UHGV virus genome: UHGV-2135452
Direction: 5' to 3' (one strand)
Origin: a virus
DNA length: 10,619 nucleotides
Positions 1 through 7,549 of this stretch are shown piece by piece. The translations under genes and the position numbers were made by a program. The first letter of the stretch is position 1; each line of letters begins with the position of its first letter. The notes under the pieces are model-generated. The model had not been told where the DNA came from. It did no database searches and was given only the letters and a program-made list of their open reading frames with translations.

Positions 1-135
1 GGCTTTAATGTCATAGGGAGTCGTGACTCCGTTGCGTATCTTTTTTTGTCTCCTCACCGTCTGGTCGGTGTCCTGCTGAGACTTATAACTTCCTGTTTTT
101 GTTGGTGTAGTCCTTACACCGTCCAATCATTATTT

Positions 136-291: not shown

Positions 292-412
292 AAAAAAAAT
301 TTTTTTCGAAAGAACTGTTCACACTGTTCACCTTTCTGTTTTCTCCTTTTATTTCAGAGTGATAGATGGTGAATAATGGGTGAAGGGTGAACATTCGATT
401 CTTCACCTCCGG
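292..412. repeat. crr direct repeat 1 (about 120 bp) with TGTTCACC / GGTGAACA type I iterons (alpha binding sites)
   Basis: Begins with an A8T7 tract and contains TGTTCACACTGTTCACC plus inverted GGTGAA copies. Near-identical copy at 473..592, period about 181 bp. Matches P4 crr (two 120-bp direct repeats with type I iterons) downstream of alpha. Confidence 0.7.
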
Positions 413-472
413 CATTCTGCCGGTGTGACTTGTGCAGGGGATTAATTTCCCGTGCTGAAATCACACCGGAAG

Positions 473-592
473 AAAAAAAGTTTTTTTGATTTGATTGTTC
501 ACACTGTTCACCTTTCATTTTTCTCTATTAATTTCAGTGTGATAACGGGTGAATATACGGTGAAGGGTGAACAGTGGATTGTTCACCTTCGG
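473..592. repeat. crr direct repeat 2
   Basis: Second copy of the roughly 120-bp unit with the same iteron arrangement. The inter-repeat segment 420..469 holds a 9-bp inverted repeat, CCGGTGTGA ... TCACACCGG. Confidence 0.7.
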
Positions 593-605
593 GGAATTCA
601 GGGAT

Positions 606-630
606 AAAAAAAGACCGGCAGATGCCGGTC
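606..630 (-). terminator. Rho-independent terminator downstream of alpha
   Basis: On the minus strand: GACCGGCATCTGCCGGTC hairpin followed by TTTTTTT, starting 17 nt after the alpha stop codon. Confidence 0.6.
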
Positions 631-646
631 AGATGAGTCATGATGG

Positions 647-2980
647 TCAGGTTGTTGCAGGGTCGTCACATTTTGGCAGCCAGTCGCCGTAGCTTTCCTC
701 TTTCAGCGTCAGGTTGGTCTGTATCCCCTGTTTGGTATGGCGCTTCTCGTAATTCAGTCCGTATTCCTTCAGCATCACCGGCAGCCCCAGCCCGAACATT
801 TTCAGACTGAGTACATTCCGGTAGCCGTTTGCCTCCATGTAGGCCAGATAGGCGTGATAGAGGTATTTACGGTAATTACGCGGGATGATACTGGCGTTCC
901 CCATATACATGCCGCTGGTCTGCGGCAGGGTTTCCAGATAGCCGATAAAATCAAACGTCGGGTCGGCATCCCGTTTGATGTTCAGTGCCTCGTCTGAGTT
1001 CTGCTGGGACTGAAGCAGTGACCGGGCGAGCATCGGGTCGCTGAACTTCTGCATCAGGTGACGCACGATGACCGCCAGCTCGCGGGTGATTTTGTCCTTA
1101 AGCTGCGGGTCGCGCTCCTGCGGGGCTATCTGTTCCGGGAAGTGAATAATCACCCGCCGGCGTGACACGCCGCCGCTGCGGTCGGTGAAGCGCATCGGGT
1201 TATTGTTCACGGCCAGAATCACCGCCGGGATATGCGTGGAGTACGCATCCCGGTATTTCGGGTCAACGGACACCGCGTCGCCGCCGGTGATGGCCTTGAG
1301 TCCGGCACCGTCGCCGCTCCATTTTTCCTGGTCCGGCAGGCGTATCAGTGAGAAGCCAGTTAACGCGGCACGTTCACGCGGGGATTCCAGCGTCTCGATG
1401 GTGGCCGACGTGGCGTTATCCTCCCCGGCCAGCAGGGTGGCTATTTCGGCCATGATACTTTTGCCGCTGCCGCCGGGACCGGTCACCTCCAGAAAGAGCT
1501 GCCAGTCGTAGCGGTTTGCCAGCACCATAAACAGTGCGGCCAGAATCACGTCGCGTTTTTCCGCACGGCCACCGGCGGCACGGTCAAGCCAGCGCCAGAA
1601 CGCGGGGGCGTGGGTTTCCAGCGTTTCCCCTTCCACCGGCGGGGTGAAATCCACATCGCACAGGGTACGCATCCAGTGTGACGGACTGTGCGGGTGGAAC
1701 GTGCCGTTCTGCGTGTCGAGCACGCCGTTACGAAAGCCAATCAGGCGGCGGGAGGGGGCTTCCTGCTGCGGAATAATCAGCTTCAGGGTGTCCACCACGG
1801 AGGCCACCTTCCCGGAGGAGAACGGCGCGCGCAGACGCTGAAACAGCCCGGCCACATCCCGGGCAAAGTCCTGTGGTGGCAGCACCTTCCAGACACCATT
1901 TTCATAACGGGACAGAAGCTGGCCGTTGGCATCGACCGCGAGCGCCTCGCCGTAATGCTCATAGATACGCATGGCCTTTTCGCTGGTACTCATGGCGGAA
2001 AACTCCGCTTCGCTCATGGTGTCGAACGGGCTTTCAGCCGGTGGCCGGATGGCATCGTAAATGGCCTTACGGGTGGCCTCCCCGCCGTACTGCGTGAAGG
2101 CATCATTCCAGTCACCGAAGACCGGCGGCAGGGCAACAACGCCCTCACACGCATCTGCGGCTGCGGCGGCTTTTGTCTGGCCGTCACCGCTGAGGTCACG
2201 GTCTGCGGCAAGGACAATCTGACAGGCCGGATACTTCTGTCGGGCAAGGCTGGCCAGAGAAAGGAGGTTCACGGAAGAAAGCGCCACCATCACCGTTTCA
2301 CCGGTCAGGTGATGCACGGTAAGTGCGGTCGCGTATCCCTCCGCTATCCACAGACGTTTTCCTGCCTGATTCTGTCCTTCAAGGGTGTGACAGGTGCCCC
2401 TGACCTGTCCGCCTTTCAGGGTGCGCTTACGGCCGTCAGCACTGATTAACTGAAGGTTAACCAGTTCGCCGCTGTCGTCATACAGTGGCACCACAAGGTC
2501 ACCGGCGCGCCAGCTCACGCCACCGGCTCTGTGTGTGCCGGTCAGCATCCGGCATTCCCGGCCGGGAAAGCCCTTGCGGGTCAGGTAGGCGTTACCGGTT
2601 CCGGGACGGGTTTTCGCCATCAGGGTTTGTGCCAGTGCGGCGGCGTTCTTCCGGGCAGCGTCTGTTTCAGCACCGGCGGCAGCCGTCACTGCCGGGTCAG
2701 CCGGGGGCAGGCTGCCGGTCACGGCAGCCACCTTTGCGGCCGCATCGGACGGGGAAACACCAAACACCTTTTCAACCAGTTTCAGGCCGTCACCGGCACC
2801 ACACTGATTGCAGTACCAGGTGCCGCGCCCCTCCCTGTCATCAAAACGGAAGCGGTCACTCCCGCCACAGACCGGACAGGGCTGATGACGGTTTTTCAGC
2901 ACCTGAATCCCCAGCGCCGGGAGAATACGCGGCCAGTGGCCGAGCGCATGGCTGACGGTGGCGGTTACGTTCATTTTCAT
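647..2980 (-). CDS. alpha: P4 alpha-type replication protein (primase / SF3 helicase / origin-binding), 777 aa
   Basis: Length equals P4 alpha. N-terminal zinc-finger CPVCGG...CNQCG, TOPRIM-like AEGYATAL and AADRD, Walker A GPGGSGKS. ATG start; terminator downstream. Confidence 0.95.
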   Translation of the reverse strand: MKMNVTATVSHALGHWPRILPALGIQVLKNRHQPCPVCGGSDRFRFDDREGRGTWYCNQCGAGDGLKLVEKVFGVSPSDAAAKVAAVTGSLPPADPAVTAAAGAETDAARKNAAALAQTLMAKTRPGTGNAYLTRKGFPGRECRMLTGTHRAGGVSWRAGDLVVPLYDDSGELVNLQLISADGRKRTLKGGQVRGTCHTLEGQNQAGKRLWIAEGYATALTVHHLTGETVMVALSSVNLLSLASLARQKYPACQIVLAADRDLSGDGQTKAAAAADACEGVVALPPVFGDWNDAFTQYGGEATRKAIYDAIRPPAESPFDTMSEAEFSAMSTSEKAMRIYEHYGEALAVDANGQLLSRYENGVWKVLPPQDFARDVAGLFQRLRAPFSSGKVASVVDTLKLIIPQQEAPSRRLIGFRNGVLDTQNGTFHPHSPSHWMRTLCDVDFTPPVEGETLETHAPAFWRWLDRAAGGRAEKRDVILAALFMVLANRYDWQLFLEVTGPGGSGKSIMAEIATLLAGEDNATSATIETLESPRERAALTGFSLIRLPDQEKWSGDGAGLKAITGGDAVSVDPKYRDAYSTHIPAVILAVNNNPMRFTDRSGGVSRRRVIIHFPEQIAPQERDPQLKDKITRELAVIVRHLMQKFSDPMLARSLLQSQQNSDEALNIKRDADPTFDFIGYLETLPQTSGMYMGNASIIPRNYRKYLYHAYLAYMEANGYRNVLSLKMFGLGLPVMLKEYGLNYEKRHTKQGIQTNLTLKEESYGDWLPKCDDPATT

Positions 2981-2994
2981 GGTGTTGTTCTCCT

Positions 2995-3315
2995 TCAGTG
3001 CAGTACCGGCGCTTTTATGTGACGGGCACAGAGTTCATCCATCACAACCAGCCCGAGAAAGGACAGCGACGGCGCGGCCTTCAGGGGGCCGGATTCCATT
3101 AAATCTTCCAGCAGGGCACAGGCTATCTGACGCCCTTTTTCCTCACCGTGCTGGCGCAGATAAAAGCCTTCCAGCTCAGCGGCGATGGCAGCCTCCAGTG
3201 ATTCAAGGGTGAGATGCGGGTAGCGGTGCTGACGTTCGCACACGGTCAGCCAGGCACAGGCGACAGCGCGACGGTAAAGGGCTGCGCGTAAGACGGGCGG
3301 TAAGGGGGGGGGCAT
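2995..3315 (-). CDS. Hypothetical protein of the P4-like left operon (epsilon/orf position immediately upstream of alpha), 106 aa
   Basis: ATG at 3315 preceded by GGAGG with 7-nt spacing. Ends 14 nt before the alpha start. Codons 2-4 (PPP) are encoded by a 9-nt G/C homopolymer at 3304..3312. Confidence 0.6.
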
Positions 3316-3450
3316 TTGCTTTCCTCCCTGTGACAGATGACTGCATTCCGTGCCGGTTGCATTAACTGATAAGGCATATCTGCGTCTCCTGAAGACGTGC
3401 GTATCCCTGCGCGAATACGCACATTTAATTTTTCGGGTGTCGTTTTTTAA

Positions 3451-3906
3451 TTACAGATAATTGCGGTAACTGTTATCCGGGGTGATTTCCGGGTCAGGCT
3501 CCGTGCGGGGAATTTCCCGCCATTCCCGCGCCACCGGTGCCGCCCGGCTGACCGGAACAGGGTCCTGCGGGTAAATATCCAGATATTTCTCCCGCCATTT
3601 CTGTAATTCCGGGTCTCCGGCCATTTCTTTCAGTACCGCATGCCGGTTTACGGGGCTGCGTCTGAACAGGTCAGGACGGTCACAGGTAAATTCCCGCAGA
3701 AAACGCCCCAGCGGGATGTCTGTGGTGCGCCCGTCAGCGAGGATACGCACAAGGATACTGAATTTACGGCGGTACGGATTCCAGACAATGTCCGGGCAGC
3801 GGTACGGCATTTCCCACGGAATACCGTCTTCCAGAATGCCGACCACGGCCACATCGGGAAAACCGGCAGAACGGTAAATCTCACCGGGCTGGGGAAAATC
3901 AAACAT
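3451..3906 (-). CDS. Hypothetical protein, 151 aa (same length as P4 orf151; assignment tentative)
   Basis: ATG at 3906 preceded by GGGGAG. Start overlaps the stop of the upstream ORF (ATGTTTGA), suggesting translational coupling within the left operon. Confidence 0.6.
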   Translation of the reverse strand: MFDFPQPGEIYRSAGFPDVAVVGILEDGIPWEMPYRCPDIVWNPYRRKFSILVRILADGRTTDIPLGRFLREFTCDRPDLFRRSPVNRHAVLKEMAGDPELQKWREKYLDIYPQDPVPVSRAAPVAREWREIPRTEPDPEITPDNSYRNYL

Positions 3907-4342
3907 GCGTCCTGTCTCCCCGGTCTTTCTGCTGGGCGAGAAAATCGCGGCACAGGCCTTTGGCTTTCAGCTCATTCAGCACAAAATCAATATCTTCATT
4001 CAGGTAGCTGAAAATATGCGGAATGTAGAGCTGATGCAGGCCGGAGAGTTCACGGTGAATCAAATCACCCCCAACAAACTGGGATACGGCGCTGGCGCGG
4101 TTGAGCTTATGGTAAGCCTCAATGCTGAGGTGTTCACGGGCGTCATGACGTGCTGAGACGGTCTGAGGGGCTTTTTTATTACGCACGGGACACCTCCACC
4201 ACCGGCAGACGGGCAGCAAGGGAGAGCACATAGTCACGGACAAGGGAACGGCGGGCGCTGCGTTCATCACCGGCGACGGTGCGAAGCATGCAGATACGGG
4301 GATGACGGTCTGCGCGACGGACAGCCGCAAACACAAAGACAA
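3899..4342 (-). CDS. Hypothetical protein, first ORF downstream of the immunity region (kil/eta position); N-terminus uncertain
   Basis: Open frame whose stop overlaps the start of the 151-aa ORF. The track start at 4342 is TTG; in-frame ATGs at 4267 and 4231; none has a clear Shine-Dalgarno. Confidence 0.4.
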
Positions 4343-4384
4343 ATTCAGGGTGTGAAGGGGTAAGGGTTGTAGCCATAAGGCAGT

Positions 4385-4430
4385 CTCCTTCGAGTAGCAA
4401 ATAACTGCTATCGCCGGAGTTCCTACGCTC
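4385..4430 (-). promoter_or_regulatory. seqC-like target element of the P4-type immunity system
   Basis: CCTTCGAG (4387..4394) and GTTCCTACGC (4419..4428) are both complementary to blocks in the seqB region. A 9-bp inverted repeat, GCTATCGCC ... GGCGATAGC (4408..4442), encloses the second block. Confidence 0.45.
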
Positions 4431-4439
4431 GATGGCGAT

Positions 4440-4520
4440 AGCCCAGACGGGGGTAGGAATACCGGCCTCGAAGAATACCGGCCAGCCCGGAGGCTGCCCC
4501 GCCTGAGCTACCATTGACTC
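4440..4520 (-). ncRNA. cI: Candidate cI-type immunity RNA (contains seqB); boundaries approximate
   Basis: seqB blocks GTAGGAA (4453..4459) and CTCGAAG (4467..4473) are reverse-complementary to the repeated blocks in seqA and seqC, in nested antiparallel arrangement. Position about 215-245 nt downstream of the predicted P_LE start matches the P4 layout. Confidence 0.45.
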
Positions 4521-4643
4521 AGTGGCATAACATGCGATTGCGAACAGGATCATACCTGCACGGCAAACCACACGCCACACCATAATCTGGCGCTCTGTGG
4601 CGTTGATTGCGACACAAAAAAAGACGCATGGCGCGTCATATGT

Positions 4644-4672
4644 CGCCTTCGAGTTACACGGGTTCCTACGCC
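4644..4672 (-). promoter_or_regulatory. seqA-like target element in the left-operon leader
   Basis: CCTTCGAG (4646..4653) and GTTCCTACGC (4662..4671), direct repeats of the seqC blocks and complementary to seqB. Lies 20-50 nt downstream of the predicted P_LE start. Confidence 0.45.
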
Positions 4673-4700
4673 CGGCTGCCGATTTTGCGGCAGCGGAAAA

Positions 4701-4730
4701 ACTATATCCGCAAATGCCGGAAAAAGGCAA
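4701..4730 (-). promoter_or_regulatory. Candidate sigma70 promoter (P_LE-like) for the immunity/alpha operon
   Basis: On the minus strand: -35 TTGCCT (4730..4725), 18-bp spacer, -10 TATAGT (4706..4701). Sits just after the vis stop and just before seqA. Confidence 0.45.
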
Positions 4731-4765
4731 GCCAGAAAAAGGGACTTTTTGCAGAGCGGGCATCA

Positions 4766-5032
4766 TCATGCGTCGTACCCCCGTTTGCGTCCGGCAATGC
4801 GCCCGGCCATCCATGCGGTGACTTCAGAGTGCAGCCAGGCCACATTTTTACCGCCAAGACTCACCTGCGGCGGAAATTCCCCCTTACGGATGAGTTCATA
4901 GATGGTCGAGCGTGACAGGCCGCACAGGTGCATCACTTCCGGCAGACGTAAAAAACGCTCCTGCGTGATGTCCGGCAGCGGCATCAGTGGCGTAACAGGG
5001 GCGGGAGACGGGGAAGAAAAAACAGCTTGCAT
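4766..5032 (-). CDS. vis: Vis / AlpA-family HTH regulator-excisionase, 88 aa
   Basis: AlpA/Xis-like HTH core [47 protein letters not shown] at 5032 preceded by GAGG. First gene downstream of the P_LL-like promoter, as in P4. Confidence 0.8.
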
Positions 5033-5084
5033 CGGGCTACCTCGTTAATGTCCATACAGCACCGGATAAGTCCGTCCGGCTTCG

Positions 5085-5152
5085 GGTAGCGCTTTATTTT
5101 GTGAATATTTTCAGCAGACGCAACAGGGGGGATTTGTTCCGGCAGCCTTACA
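5085..5152 (-). promoter_or_regulatory. Candidate Delta/Ogr-activated late promoter (P_LL-like)
   Basis: TGT-N12-ACA dyad at 5135..5152 (TGTTCCGGCAGCCTTACA), about 55 bp upstream of an AT-rich -10 region on the minus strand and about 100 bp upstream of vis. Confidence 0.5.
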
Positions 5153-5310
5153 ATGGCTGTGCATTTTTTGTACATCAGCGCCAGATAGCTTTAAAACGCT
5201 CTGGAAGGAGCTGGAAAAAATTATAGTGAAATACAAATTGTTTTTTCTTATTTATTTCAGTGAATTAATAAAAATAAAAAGTAATAAACAGCACAAAAAG
5301 CCCATCAACG

Positions 5311-5339
5311 GGTGAACAGTGGTGAACAGAGGTGAACAG
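5311..5339. other. ori1-like cluster of three 10-bp-phased type I iterons (GGTGAACAG x3) in an AT-rich tract
   Basis: GGTGAACAGT GGTGAACAGA GGTGAACAGT at 5311..5340. Same octamer as the crr iterons. Flanked by a very AT-rich segment at 5220..5310. About 4.8 kb from crr, consistent with P4 ori1-crr spacing. Confidence 0.55.
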
Positions 5340-5417
5340 TAAAATATAAAAAAACAAACAGTAAGCCGGTTTTTCCTGCGACCTTTTCCTGGCTTGCCGG
5401 TCTGAGGATGAGTCTCC

Positions 5418-5482
5418 TGTGTCAGGGCTGGCACATCTGCAATGCGTCGTGTTGCTGTCCGGTGTACGTCACAATTTTCTCA
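5418..5482 (+). promoter_or_regulatory. Candidate Delta/Ogr-activated late promoter (P_sid-like)
   Basis: TGT-N12-ACA dyad at 5418..5435 (TGTGTCAGGGCTGGCACA), about 90 bp upstream of the sid ATG and divergent from the P_LL-like dyad. Confidence 0.55.
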
Positions 5483-5507
5483 ACCTGAAGTGACGAGGAG
5501 CCGGAAA

Positions 5508-6242
5508 ATGTCTGACAACACCATCCCTGAATATCTGCAACCCGCACTGGCACAACTGGAAAAGGCCAGAGCCGCTCATCTTGAGAACGCCCGCCTGATG
5601 GATGAGACCGTCACGGCCATTGAACGGGCAGAGCAGGAAAAAAATGCGCTGACGCAGGCCGACGGAAATGACGCTGACGACTGGCGCACGGCCTTTCGTG
5701 CAGCCGGTGGTGTCCTGAGCGACGAGCTGAAACAGCGCCACATTGAGCGCGTGGCACGCCGGGAGCTGGTACAGGAATATGACAATCTGGCCGTGGTGCT
5801 GAATTTCGAACGTGAACGCCTGAAAGGGGCGTGTGACAGCACGGCCACCGCCTACCGGAAGGCACATCATCACCTTCTGAGTCTGTATGCAGAGCATGAG
5901 CTGGAACACGCCCTGAATGAAACCTGTGAGGCGCTTGTCCGGGCAATGCATCTGAGCATTCTGGTACAGGAAAATCCGCTCGCCAACACCACCGGCCATC
6001 AGGGCTACGTCGCACCGGAAAAGGCTGTCATGCAGCAGGTGAAATCATCGCTGGAACAGAAAATTAAACAGATGCAAATCAGCCTCACCGGCGAGCCGGT
6101 TCTCCGGCTGACCGGACTGTCAGCGGCAACACTCCCGCACATGGATTATGAGGTGGCAGGCACACCGGCACAGCGCAAGGTGTGGCAGGACAAAATAGAC
6201 CAGCAGGGAGCAGAGCTGAAGGCCAGAGGACTGCTGTCATGA
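5508..6242 (+). CDS. sid: Sid capsid size determination (external scaffold) protein, 244 aa
   Basis: Begins MSDNTIPEYLQPALAQLEKARAAHLENARLMDETV, recognised as P4 Sid. GAGGAG 7 nt upstream of ATG 5508. The track ORF starts earlier at 5442 but has no Shine-Dalgarno. Stop overlaps the delta start (ATGA). Confidence 0.9.
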   Translation: MSDNTIPEYLQPALAQLEKARAAHLENARLMDETVTAIERAEQEKNALTQADGNDADDWRTAFRAAGGVLSDELKQRHIERVARRELVQEYDNLAVVLNFERERLKGACDSTATAYRKAHHHLLSLYAEHELEHALNETCEALVRAMHLSILVQENPLANTTGHQGYVAPEKAVMQQVKSSLEQKIKQMQISLTGEPVLRLTGLSAATLPHMDYEVAGTPAQRKVWQDKIDQQGAELKARGLLS

Positions 6243-6739
6243 TTTACTGCCCGTCGTGTGGACATGTTGCTCACACCCGTCGCGCACATTTCATGGACGA
6301 TGGCACCAAGATAATGATTGCACAGTGCCGGAATATTTATTGCTCTGCGACATTTGAAGCGAGTGAAAGCTTTTTCTCTGACTGTAAAGATTCAGGAATG
6401 GAATACATTTCAGGCAAACAGAGATACCGCGATTCACTGACGTCAGCCTCCGGCAGCATGAAGCGCCCGAAAAGAATGCTTGTTACCGGATATTGTTGTC
6501 GGAGATGTAAAGGCCTTGCGCTGTCAAGAACATCGCGGGGTCTGTCTCAGGAAGTCACCGAGCGTTTTTATGTGTGCACGGATCCGGGCTGTGGTCTGGT
6601 GTTTAAAACGCTTCAGACCATCACCCGCTTCATTGTCCGCCCGGTCACGCCGGACGAACTGGCAGAACGCCTGCATGAAAAACAGGAACTGCCGCCAGTA
6701 CGGTTAAAAACACAATCATATTCGCTGCGTCTGGAATGA
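6239..6739 (+). CDS. delta: Delta late transcription activator (tandem Ogr-like zinc finger), 166 aa
   Basis: Begins MIYCPSCGH. Two C4 zinc-finger units (CPSCGH...CRNIYC and CRRCKG...CTDPGC). Length equals P4 Delta. The track ORF starts at 6182, but ATG 6239 overlapping the sid stop is the likely start. Confidence 0.9.
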   Translation: MIYCPSCGHVAHTRRAHFMDDGTKIMIAQCRNIYCSATFEASESFFSDCKDSGMEYISGKQRYRDSLTSASGSMKRPKRMLVTGYCCRRCKGLALSRTSRGLSQEVTERFYVCTDPGCGLVFKTLQTITRFIVRPVTPDELAERLHEKQELPPVRLKTQSYSLRLE

Positions 6740-6812
6740 GGGCTGCCGGTTAACACCGGCCGTCGCCACACACCGTATTTTTATTCTTCAGCATGATGAG
6801 AAAGAGATAACG

Positions 6813-7385
6813 ATGGAAAGCACAGCCTTACAGCAGGCCTTTGACACCTGTCAGAATAACAAAGCAGCATGGCTGCAACGCAAAAATGAGCTGGCAGCGG
6901 CCGAACAGGAATACCTGCGGCTTCTGTCAGGAGAAGGCAGAAACGTCAGTCGCCTGGACGAATTACGCAATATTATCGAAGTCAGAAAATGGCAGGTGAA
7001 TCAGGCCGCCGGTCGTTATATTCGTTCGCATGAAGCCGTTCAGCACATCAGCATCCGCGACCGGCTGAATGATTTTATGCAGCAGCACGGCACAGCACTG
7101 GCGGCGGCACTGGCACCGGAGCTGATGGGCTACAGTGAGCTGACGGCCATTGCCCGAAACTGTGCCATACAGCGTGCCACAGATGCCCTGCGTGAAGCCC
7201 TTCTGTCCTGGCTTGCGAAGGGGGAAAAAATTAATTATTCCGCACAGGATAGCGACATTTTAACGACCATCGGATTCAGGCCTGACGCGGCTTCGGTGGA
7301 CGACAGCCGTGAAAAATTCACCCCTGCGCAGAACATGATTTTTTCGCGTAAAAGTGCGCAACTGGCATCACGTCAGTCTGTGTAA
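6813..7385 (+). CDS. psu: Psu polarity suppression / capsid decoration protein, 190 aa
   Basis: Length and sequence (MESTALQQAFDTCQNNKAAW ... ASRQSV) as recalled for P4 Psu. Last gene of the sid operon, immediately before cos. Confidence 0.9.
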   Translation: MESTALQQAFDTCQNNKAAWLQRKNELAAAEQEYLRLLSGEGRNVSRLDELRNIIEVRKWQVNQAAGRYIRSHEAVQHISIRDRLNDFMQQHGTALAAALAPELMGYSELTAIARNCAIQRATDALREALLSWLAKGEKINYSAQDSDILTTIGFRPDAASVDDSREKFTPAQNMIFSRKSAQLASRQSV

Positions 7386-7420
7386 AATTTCCCGAAAATC
7401 CGCCTGTTTTTACTGAAAAA

Positions 7421-7447
7421 AGCCATGCATCGATAAGGTGCATGGCT
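7421..7447 (+). terminator. Candidate terminator hairpin downstream of psu
   Basis: AGCCATGCA-TCGATAAGG-TGCATGGCT stem-loop preceded by an A-run and followed by a short T-rich stretch (TTTG). The T-tract is weak. Confidence 0.35.
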
Positions 7448-7549
7448 TTGCATGCGTTTCCCTGCCTCATTTTCTGCAGACCGCGCCATTCCCGGCGCGG
7501 TCTGAGCGTGTCAGTGCAACTGCATTAAAACCGCCCCGCAAAGCGTGCG

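Follow-up and report, generated by a model that had tools for sequence, protein, structure and literature searches.

The region at positions 293-592 was very probably the crr of a P4-like satellite prophage, that is, an iteron cluster for the prophage's own alpha initiator, which would act as a cis enhancer of ori1. It was found in the UHGV virus genome UHGV-2135452, and the whole analysed stretch of 10,619 nucleotides is called the window. The region could be read with high confidence as a noncoding cluster of twelve predicted type I iterons (TGTTCACC and its variants), with six in each 120-bp unit. There is little doubt that the two repeats are the already known P4 crr in a near-identical copy, an identification that is correct but ordinary. 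Nothing in the sequence was against this explanation.

The layout of the repeats was compared with the initial annotation, which had described tandem units of about 120 bp. Two direct repeats were found, and their coordinates had been right within 1 nt. However, the units were not head-to-tail, and a diverged 60-nt spacer intervened between them. The two units were 81% identical without gaps over 120 nt, with a start-to-start distance of 180 nt. This agreed with the expectation that they would align to each other at high identity. The A/T homopolymer tracts with which each unit had been said to open were both present (Table 1). The 180-nt period was not reported by Tandem Repeats Finder in the region, where it gave only a 9-bp ACTGTTCAC doublet.

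Table 1. Positions of the repeats, their iterons and the associated replication features in the window
Feature	Position	Strand	Details
Predicted crr, two 120-bp units and 60-bp spacer	293..592	.	Alignment to annotated P4 crr (X51522 4291-4590); direct repeat family D1
crr unit 1, alpha-distal	293..412	+	120 nt; 2 positions differ from P4 unit 1; missing from many single-unit relatives
crr unit 2, alpha-proximal	473..592	+	120 nt; 3 positions differ from P4 unit 2
A8T7 tract at start of unit 1	292..306	.	Read off sequence; unit 2 counterpart A7GT7 473-487
Two direct type I iterons, TGTTCACA 316-323 and TGTTCACC 325-332	316..332	+	Unit 2 copies 496-503, 505-512
35-bp A/T-rich segment between inverted iterons, T/C-rich on + strand	333..367	.	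Unit 2 copy 513-547
Three inverted iterons, TATTCACC 368-375, CCTTCACC 379-386, TGTTCACC 386-393	368..393	-	Unit 2 copies 548-555, 559-566, 566-573
Sixth iteron of unit 1, TCTTCACC	400..407	+	Unit 2 copy TGTTCACC 580-587
Variable 60-bp spacer with inverted repeat	413..472	.	Arms 415-441 / 448-474; perfect 9-bp core 420-428 / 461-469
Rho-independent terminator of alpha transcript	603..630	-	Stem 613-630, T-run 603-612; 'talpha' at same P4 position
alpha gene, 777-aa primase-helicase with C-terminal origin-binding domain	647..2980	-	Pfam Zn_Ribbon_Prim, Toprim_3, D5_N, DUF5906, Pox_D5
ori1 iterons, TGTTCACC three times at 10-bp spacing	5311..5338	-	Aligns to P4 ori minus 76 bp; distant partner of crr

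The iteron content was in agreement with what had been claimed. The double octamer TGTTCACACTGTTCACC was found in both units, at 316-332 in unit 1 and at 496-512 in unit 2, and inverted GGTGAA copies were located at 368, 379 and 386 in the former and at 548, 559 and 566 in the latter. A further direct TTCACC was found at 402 (unit 1) and 582 (unit 2). The octamer TGTTCACC occurred eight times in the window, compared with 0.40 expected, and none of 200 shuffles reached eight. All copies were in crr (five) or in ori (three). The crr octamers comprised five exact copies and five with one mismatch, and the same octamer was present in the element's own origin, as is the case for a P4-type crr. The TTCACC core hexamer was also enriched, with 25 copies in the window compared with 5.5 expected, and 10 of the 25 were inside the 300-bp region.

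To measure conservation, 67 distinct units were aligned, which came from about 50 Enterobacterales loci. The majority-base fraction was 0.86-0.94 at the six iterons, 0.81 at the A/T tract and 0.66 elsewhere. The mean over the iteron mask was 0.90, which was matched by none of the 119 circular shifts. The direct iterons at 316-332 showed a conservation of 0.94 and were annotated as 'ori type 1 repeat' in P4 at equal offsets. In the case of the inverted iterons at 368-393, two of the three were annotated in P4. The middle one was unannotated, and its stretch was conserved at 0.86, a value taken from a scored block that sits 1 nt off 379-386. The 35-bp segment at 333-367 was conserved less than the iterons. 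These results indicated that the constrained parts of crr were the iterons and the A/T tract, and that the spacer was free to vary.

The spacer had been said to carry a 9-bp inverted repeat. This repeat was present and perfect, with the arms CCGGTGTGA at 420-428 and TCACACCGG at 461-469, and the enclosing 27-nt arms were 81% complementary. When the spacer was folded as single-stranded DNA, a free energy of -17.1 kcal/mol was obtained with z = -6.1, compared with z = -0.18 for that of P4. The spacers of other genera were 45-60 nt long and unrelated in sequence, and consistent folding was not seen when they were compared. Nine E. coli spacer alleles were mosaics. Their outer stem was mostly invariant, and their inner stem was paired in 54% of cells, which was equalled by shuffles. 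Compensatory changes in the spacer stem amounted to zero across these nine alleles. The allele of the window was carried, at an identity of at least 99%, by only 42 of 1002 genomes. A functional role of the spacer hairpin was rejected, because the hairpin was missing in P4 and in other genera, showed zero covariation and belonged to a rare allele. The spacer was treated as a variable linker, and its inverted repeat as allele-specific and not as a conserved part of crr.

The same data bear on the idea that the region codes for small proteins or a structured RNA, which was judged very improbable. Two ORFs do exist, one at 354-518 on the minus strand (54 aa) and one at 452-607 on the plus strand (51 aa), the spacer folds strongly, and the RefSeq record NC_001609 has a hypothetical protein under the crr match. 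However, neither ORF had a Pfam match, and both shifted in length or frame or vanished in P4 and other relatives. Conservation tracked the iterons and not codons. No Rfam family was matched in 1-700 and no promoter-like site was found in 1-800, and the pairing of the spacer was without compensatory change and missing in P4.

The likeness to P4 crr that the initial annotation had pointed to was borne out by alignment, and the noncoding iteron cluster could be compared with P4 feature by feature. The region was about 93% identical overall to P4 crr (X51522 4291-4590; also X05623) in an alignment of 348 nt. The GenBank record X51522 has the features 'crr', two 'crr 120bp direct repeat' and ten 'ori type 1 repeat' under this region, followed by 'talpha' and a 777-aa alpha CDS. 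Between each unit and the matching P4 unit, the alignments showed no more than 2-3 differences in 120 positions, whereas the spacer was far more diverged, at about one position in five. The placement just downstream of alpha, as in P4, was also found as described. The end of unit 2 (592) was 54 nt from the alpha stop codon with the alpha terminator in between, and X51522 had the same layout. The region thus had the layout of a P4-type crr, directly past the alpha terminator with two direct repeats of about 120 bp lying about 60 bp apart, together with the homology and a cognate initiator carrying the P4 origin-binding domain. In common with P4 crr, it showed the place past alpha and its terminator, the two 120-bp direct repeats and the ten annotated iterons at equal offsets. 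Unlike P4 crr, it had a spacer that was about 20% different and contained a strong palindrome that the P4 spacer is without. Its partner origin had three iterons, whereas that of P4 has six, and the att/integrase module here targeted ssrA and was unrelated to that of P4. The comparison showed the region to be the orthologue of P4 crr, which is more than mere similarity.

The alpha gene was considered in the same way. The domains of its product include one of the SF3-helicase type, besides a zinc-ribbon primase domain, Toprim, D5_N and Pox_D5. Residues 671-770 of alpha were 100% identical to PDB 1KA8, which was deposited as 'putative P4-specific DNA primase' and which we take to be the P4 origin-binding domain. 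Since the units were within 2-3 of 120 positions of P4 and this domain was identical to 1KA8, the iterons and the inferred DNA-binding domain were both those of P4. The binding of type I iterons by alpha belongs to published P4 biochemistry. By analogy with P4, alpha would be the protein that binds these iterons.

The window itself is a complete P4-like E. coli prophage at ssrA. Positions 293-7549 were 97% identical to 4291-11624 of phage P4 (X51522). Core genes, C4/CI RNA, cos and an integrase at a tRNA/tmRNA gene, which characterize a P4-like satellite, were all present. The core gene set tested comprised alpha, epsilon/derepression, CI RNA immunity, sid, delta and psu, with names taken from a near-identical E. 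coli prophage. The 19-nt cohesive-end sequence of P2/P4, GGCGAGGCGGGGAAAGCAC, was found exactly at 7550-7568, right after the match to the P4 right end. Beyond cos were a SIR2-like cargo gene, a tyrosine integrase (9141-10352) and the 3' part of ssrA (tmRNA, 10537-10619). Prophages with 98-99.5% identity were found at the same ssrA site in E. coli genomes. Rfam matches on the minus strand at 4431-4518, 4617-4694 and 4655-4707 corresponded to C4 antisense RNA (P4 CI immunity RNA), isrK and the c4 a1/b1 target, and together these features are the P4 immunity region.

At the left side of the prophage, the P4 homology started exactly at 293, the first base of crr. It begins at crr because the att/integrase module here differs from that of P4. 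Direct repeats of CGTATACCTAAnCGTATACCAAT flanked the prophage on both sides, at 207-229 and at about 10403-10425 near the integrase gene, and these repeats are likely to be arm-type sites of the integrase. The far att site is marked by an incomplete copy of the ssrA 3' end, GGCTGGCGGAGTTTGAA, at about 135-155. Outside the prophage, the flank 1-135 contained a terminator-like hairpin (22-36, plus strand) and matched the att/promoter regions of the unrelated E. coli phages Ayreon and LLS. Possibly, this flank was left behind by a different element with the same ssrA target. Between the crr repeats and the att-proximal arm repeats there are only about 60 nt, and it might be supposed that the former are themselves part of the integration site, as arm-type binding sites of the integrase. 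This was considered extremely unlikely: the arm-type repeats have another sequence, crr was kept between P4 and the window despite unrelated integrase/att modules, and the homology starts at 293.

The relatives of the element were examined through alpha homologues at 80 Enterobacterales loci (57-99% identity), and the DNA downstream of each was inspected. With the window and P4 included, two crr units were found in 21 of 82 sequences and one unit in 29, and none was detectable by blastn in 32. The sequences without a blastn-detectable unit mostly had an alpha of at most about 61% identity. Among relatives with such an alpha, units were found by blastn in few loci only, and exact 7-mer counts gave no more than hints that the geometry was shared (for example, GTGAACA in L063 or ACTCATC in L074). 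Two-unit forms were seen only where alpha was at least about 82% identical to that of the window, and one-unit forms were more common (29 vs 21 of 82). Since many relatives have one unit, the two-unit layout is not essential. In nearly all unit-bearing loci, the distance of the alpha-proximal unit to the alpha stop codon and the iteron geometry were constant.

Several loci departed from this arrangement. L010 and L033 were the exceptions to the constant distance, and in both the extra distance of the crr units from the alpha stop codon was about 700-850 nt, which points to an insertion. The two units of L052 were 330 nt apart, with an alpha-terminator-like sequence in between. L003 (SFGJ01000059.1) had an alpha of 99% identity, the same att flank and a single hybrid crr unit, whose left part resembled unit 1 and whose right part resembled unit 2. 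Unequal crossover of the two 120-bp repeats is expected to give such a product. The contig was labelled as a Clostridiales MAG, and its DNA was clearly enterobacterial. Among complete E. coli genomes, crr-like DNA was found in 1129 of 5426 (about a fifth) and was always chromosomal. Some of these matches (H49-H52) were just about 190 bp long, which suggests one-unit forms.

In ori1 of the window (context 5150-5470), only three type I iterons were found, compared with six in P4, and the difference was a clean 76-bp deletion between iteron copies. The deletion took out three of the six P4 iterons, the inverted one among them, as well as the A/T-rich segment of 35 bp. The P4 'type 2 repeats' were also missing from the ori1 of the window. 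The closest E. coli prophages retain the 76 bp, and the same deletion junction was found in one other genome, NZ_CP074407, among the top-ranked of 864 matches. The SIR2-like cargo gene (7756-9113, minus strand), which lies in the defence hotspot flanked by cos and the integrase, was split into ORFs of 289 aa and 137 aa. An intact 452-aa orthologue with 99% identity was present in NZ_AP029605, and the split is a frameshift or a sequencing error. Because of the loss of 76 bp in ori1 and the frameshifted cargo gene, the prophage is possibly an inactive copy. These results suggested that it is decaying and may be replication-impaired, in which case crr would be a well-preserved part.

One module could be aligned without gaps between the core of P4 ori and either crr unit. 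It consists of TGTTCACC, 35 bp of A/T-rich DNA, GGTGAAyA, 2-3 nt and GGTGAA. The crr units therefore resemble paralogues of the origin core. Like P4 ori1 (X51522 ~9310-9413), they contain octamer iterons and the module in which inverted iterons enclose an A/T-rich stretch of 35 bp. Unlike P4 ori1, crr is duplicated, several kb away and auxiliary, and has another iteron order on the outer side. This raises the idea that each crr unit is itself origin-like and could start replication, especially here, where the ori1 core is lost. In a gap-free alignment, the inverted-iteron/35-bp module of the P4 ori core was matched by both crr units, and exactly this module is what the 76-bp deletion between the iterons has removed from ori1 in the window. 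However, P4 replication starts at ori1, in vivo and in vitro, and is not known to start at crr. The deletion was rare (a single further E. coli genome had it in the top-ranked part of 864 matches) and was accompanied by a frameshifted cargo gene. Decay is the simpler reading for these two reasons, and initiation at the crr units was regarded as improbable. We consider equally improbable the broader proposal that crr is a latent origin at which alpha opens the DNA, and not an enhancer only, and the related one that the number of units is a variable dial of replication strength set via unequal crossover.

In the preferred reading, in which crr is an enhancer of ori1, replication would proceed as follows. 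Once the prophage is excised, alpha, which is encoded on the minus strand adjoining crr, would bind the octamers at ori and crr. It would contact them via its C-terminal winged-helix domain. The alpha-bound ori1 and crr, about 4.7 kb apart in the window, would then be joined by DNA looping. In this complex, crr would act as a cis-acting enhancer of ori1 initiation, irrespective of distance and orientation, and would also offer extra sites where alpha and the Cnr protein limit copy number. Alpha binding, the cis requirement, ori-crr looping and the role of Cnr have reportedly been described in P4, in studies dating from 1987 to 1999. For the window, these four points are carried over from the P4 literature and not from the sequence. 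On the sequence level, the mechanism was supported by the orthology with P4 crr, by the iterons (their enrichment, their geometry and their conservation across genera), by the octamer at ori and by the identity of the alpha domain.

The cluster could also be mainly a negative element of copy-number control or incompatibility, which titrates alpha or handcuffs origins, as P1 incA and F incC do. This was considered possible but rather unlikely. Twelve iterons outside the origin in two redundant units would suit such a role, and the common occurrence of one-unit forms suggests that the dosage can vary. Cnr reportedly enhances the binding of alpha at both ori and crr, which would also fit a control element. 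However, the annotation of the P4 GenBank record X51522, which comes from the original genetics, is 'cis required region for replication', and this names a positive requirement. Figure legends use the same name for crr, and Ziegelin et al. 1993 is listed by title among the references of PMC8628076. In addition, one role does not preclude the other, and the enhancer mechanism already includes a control role.

Distant iteron clusters are known in other replicons, such as the R6K gamma-origin enhancer with pi-mediated looping, the control iterons P1 incA and F incC, and V. cholerae crtS. These systems are like crr in that a cluster of initiator repeats lies apart from the initiation site and acts in cis via initiator contacts. 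However, the initiator there is Rep, pi or RctB, whereas that of crr is an unrelated primase-helicase with a winged-helix domain. Unlike them, crr would be positively required, by analogy with P4, and it is not known to have a sequence relationship to them.

P4 crr was described in the 1980s, and the present identification has little weight as a discovery. Its practical value is in annotation. For the E. coli prophage that was examined, RefSeq leaves crr unmarked, and automated pipelines sometimes put hypothetical ORFs over crr. The comparative results add modest detail to the biology of this family, in that one-unit forms of crr are common and that this element may be replication-impaired.
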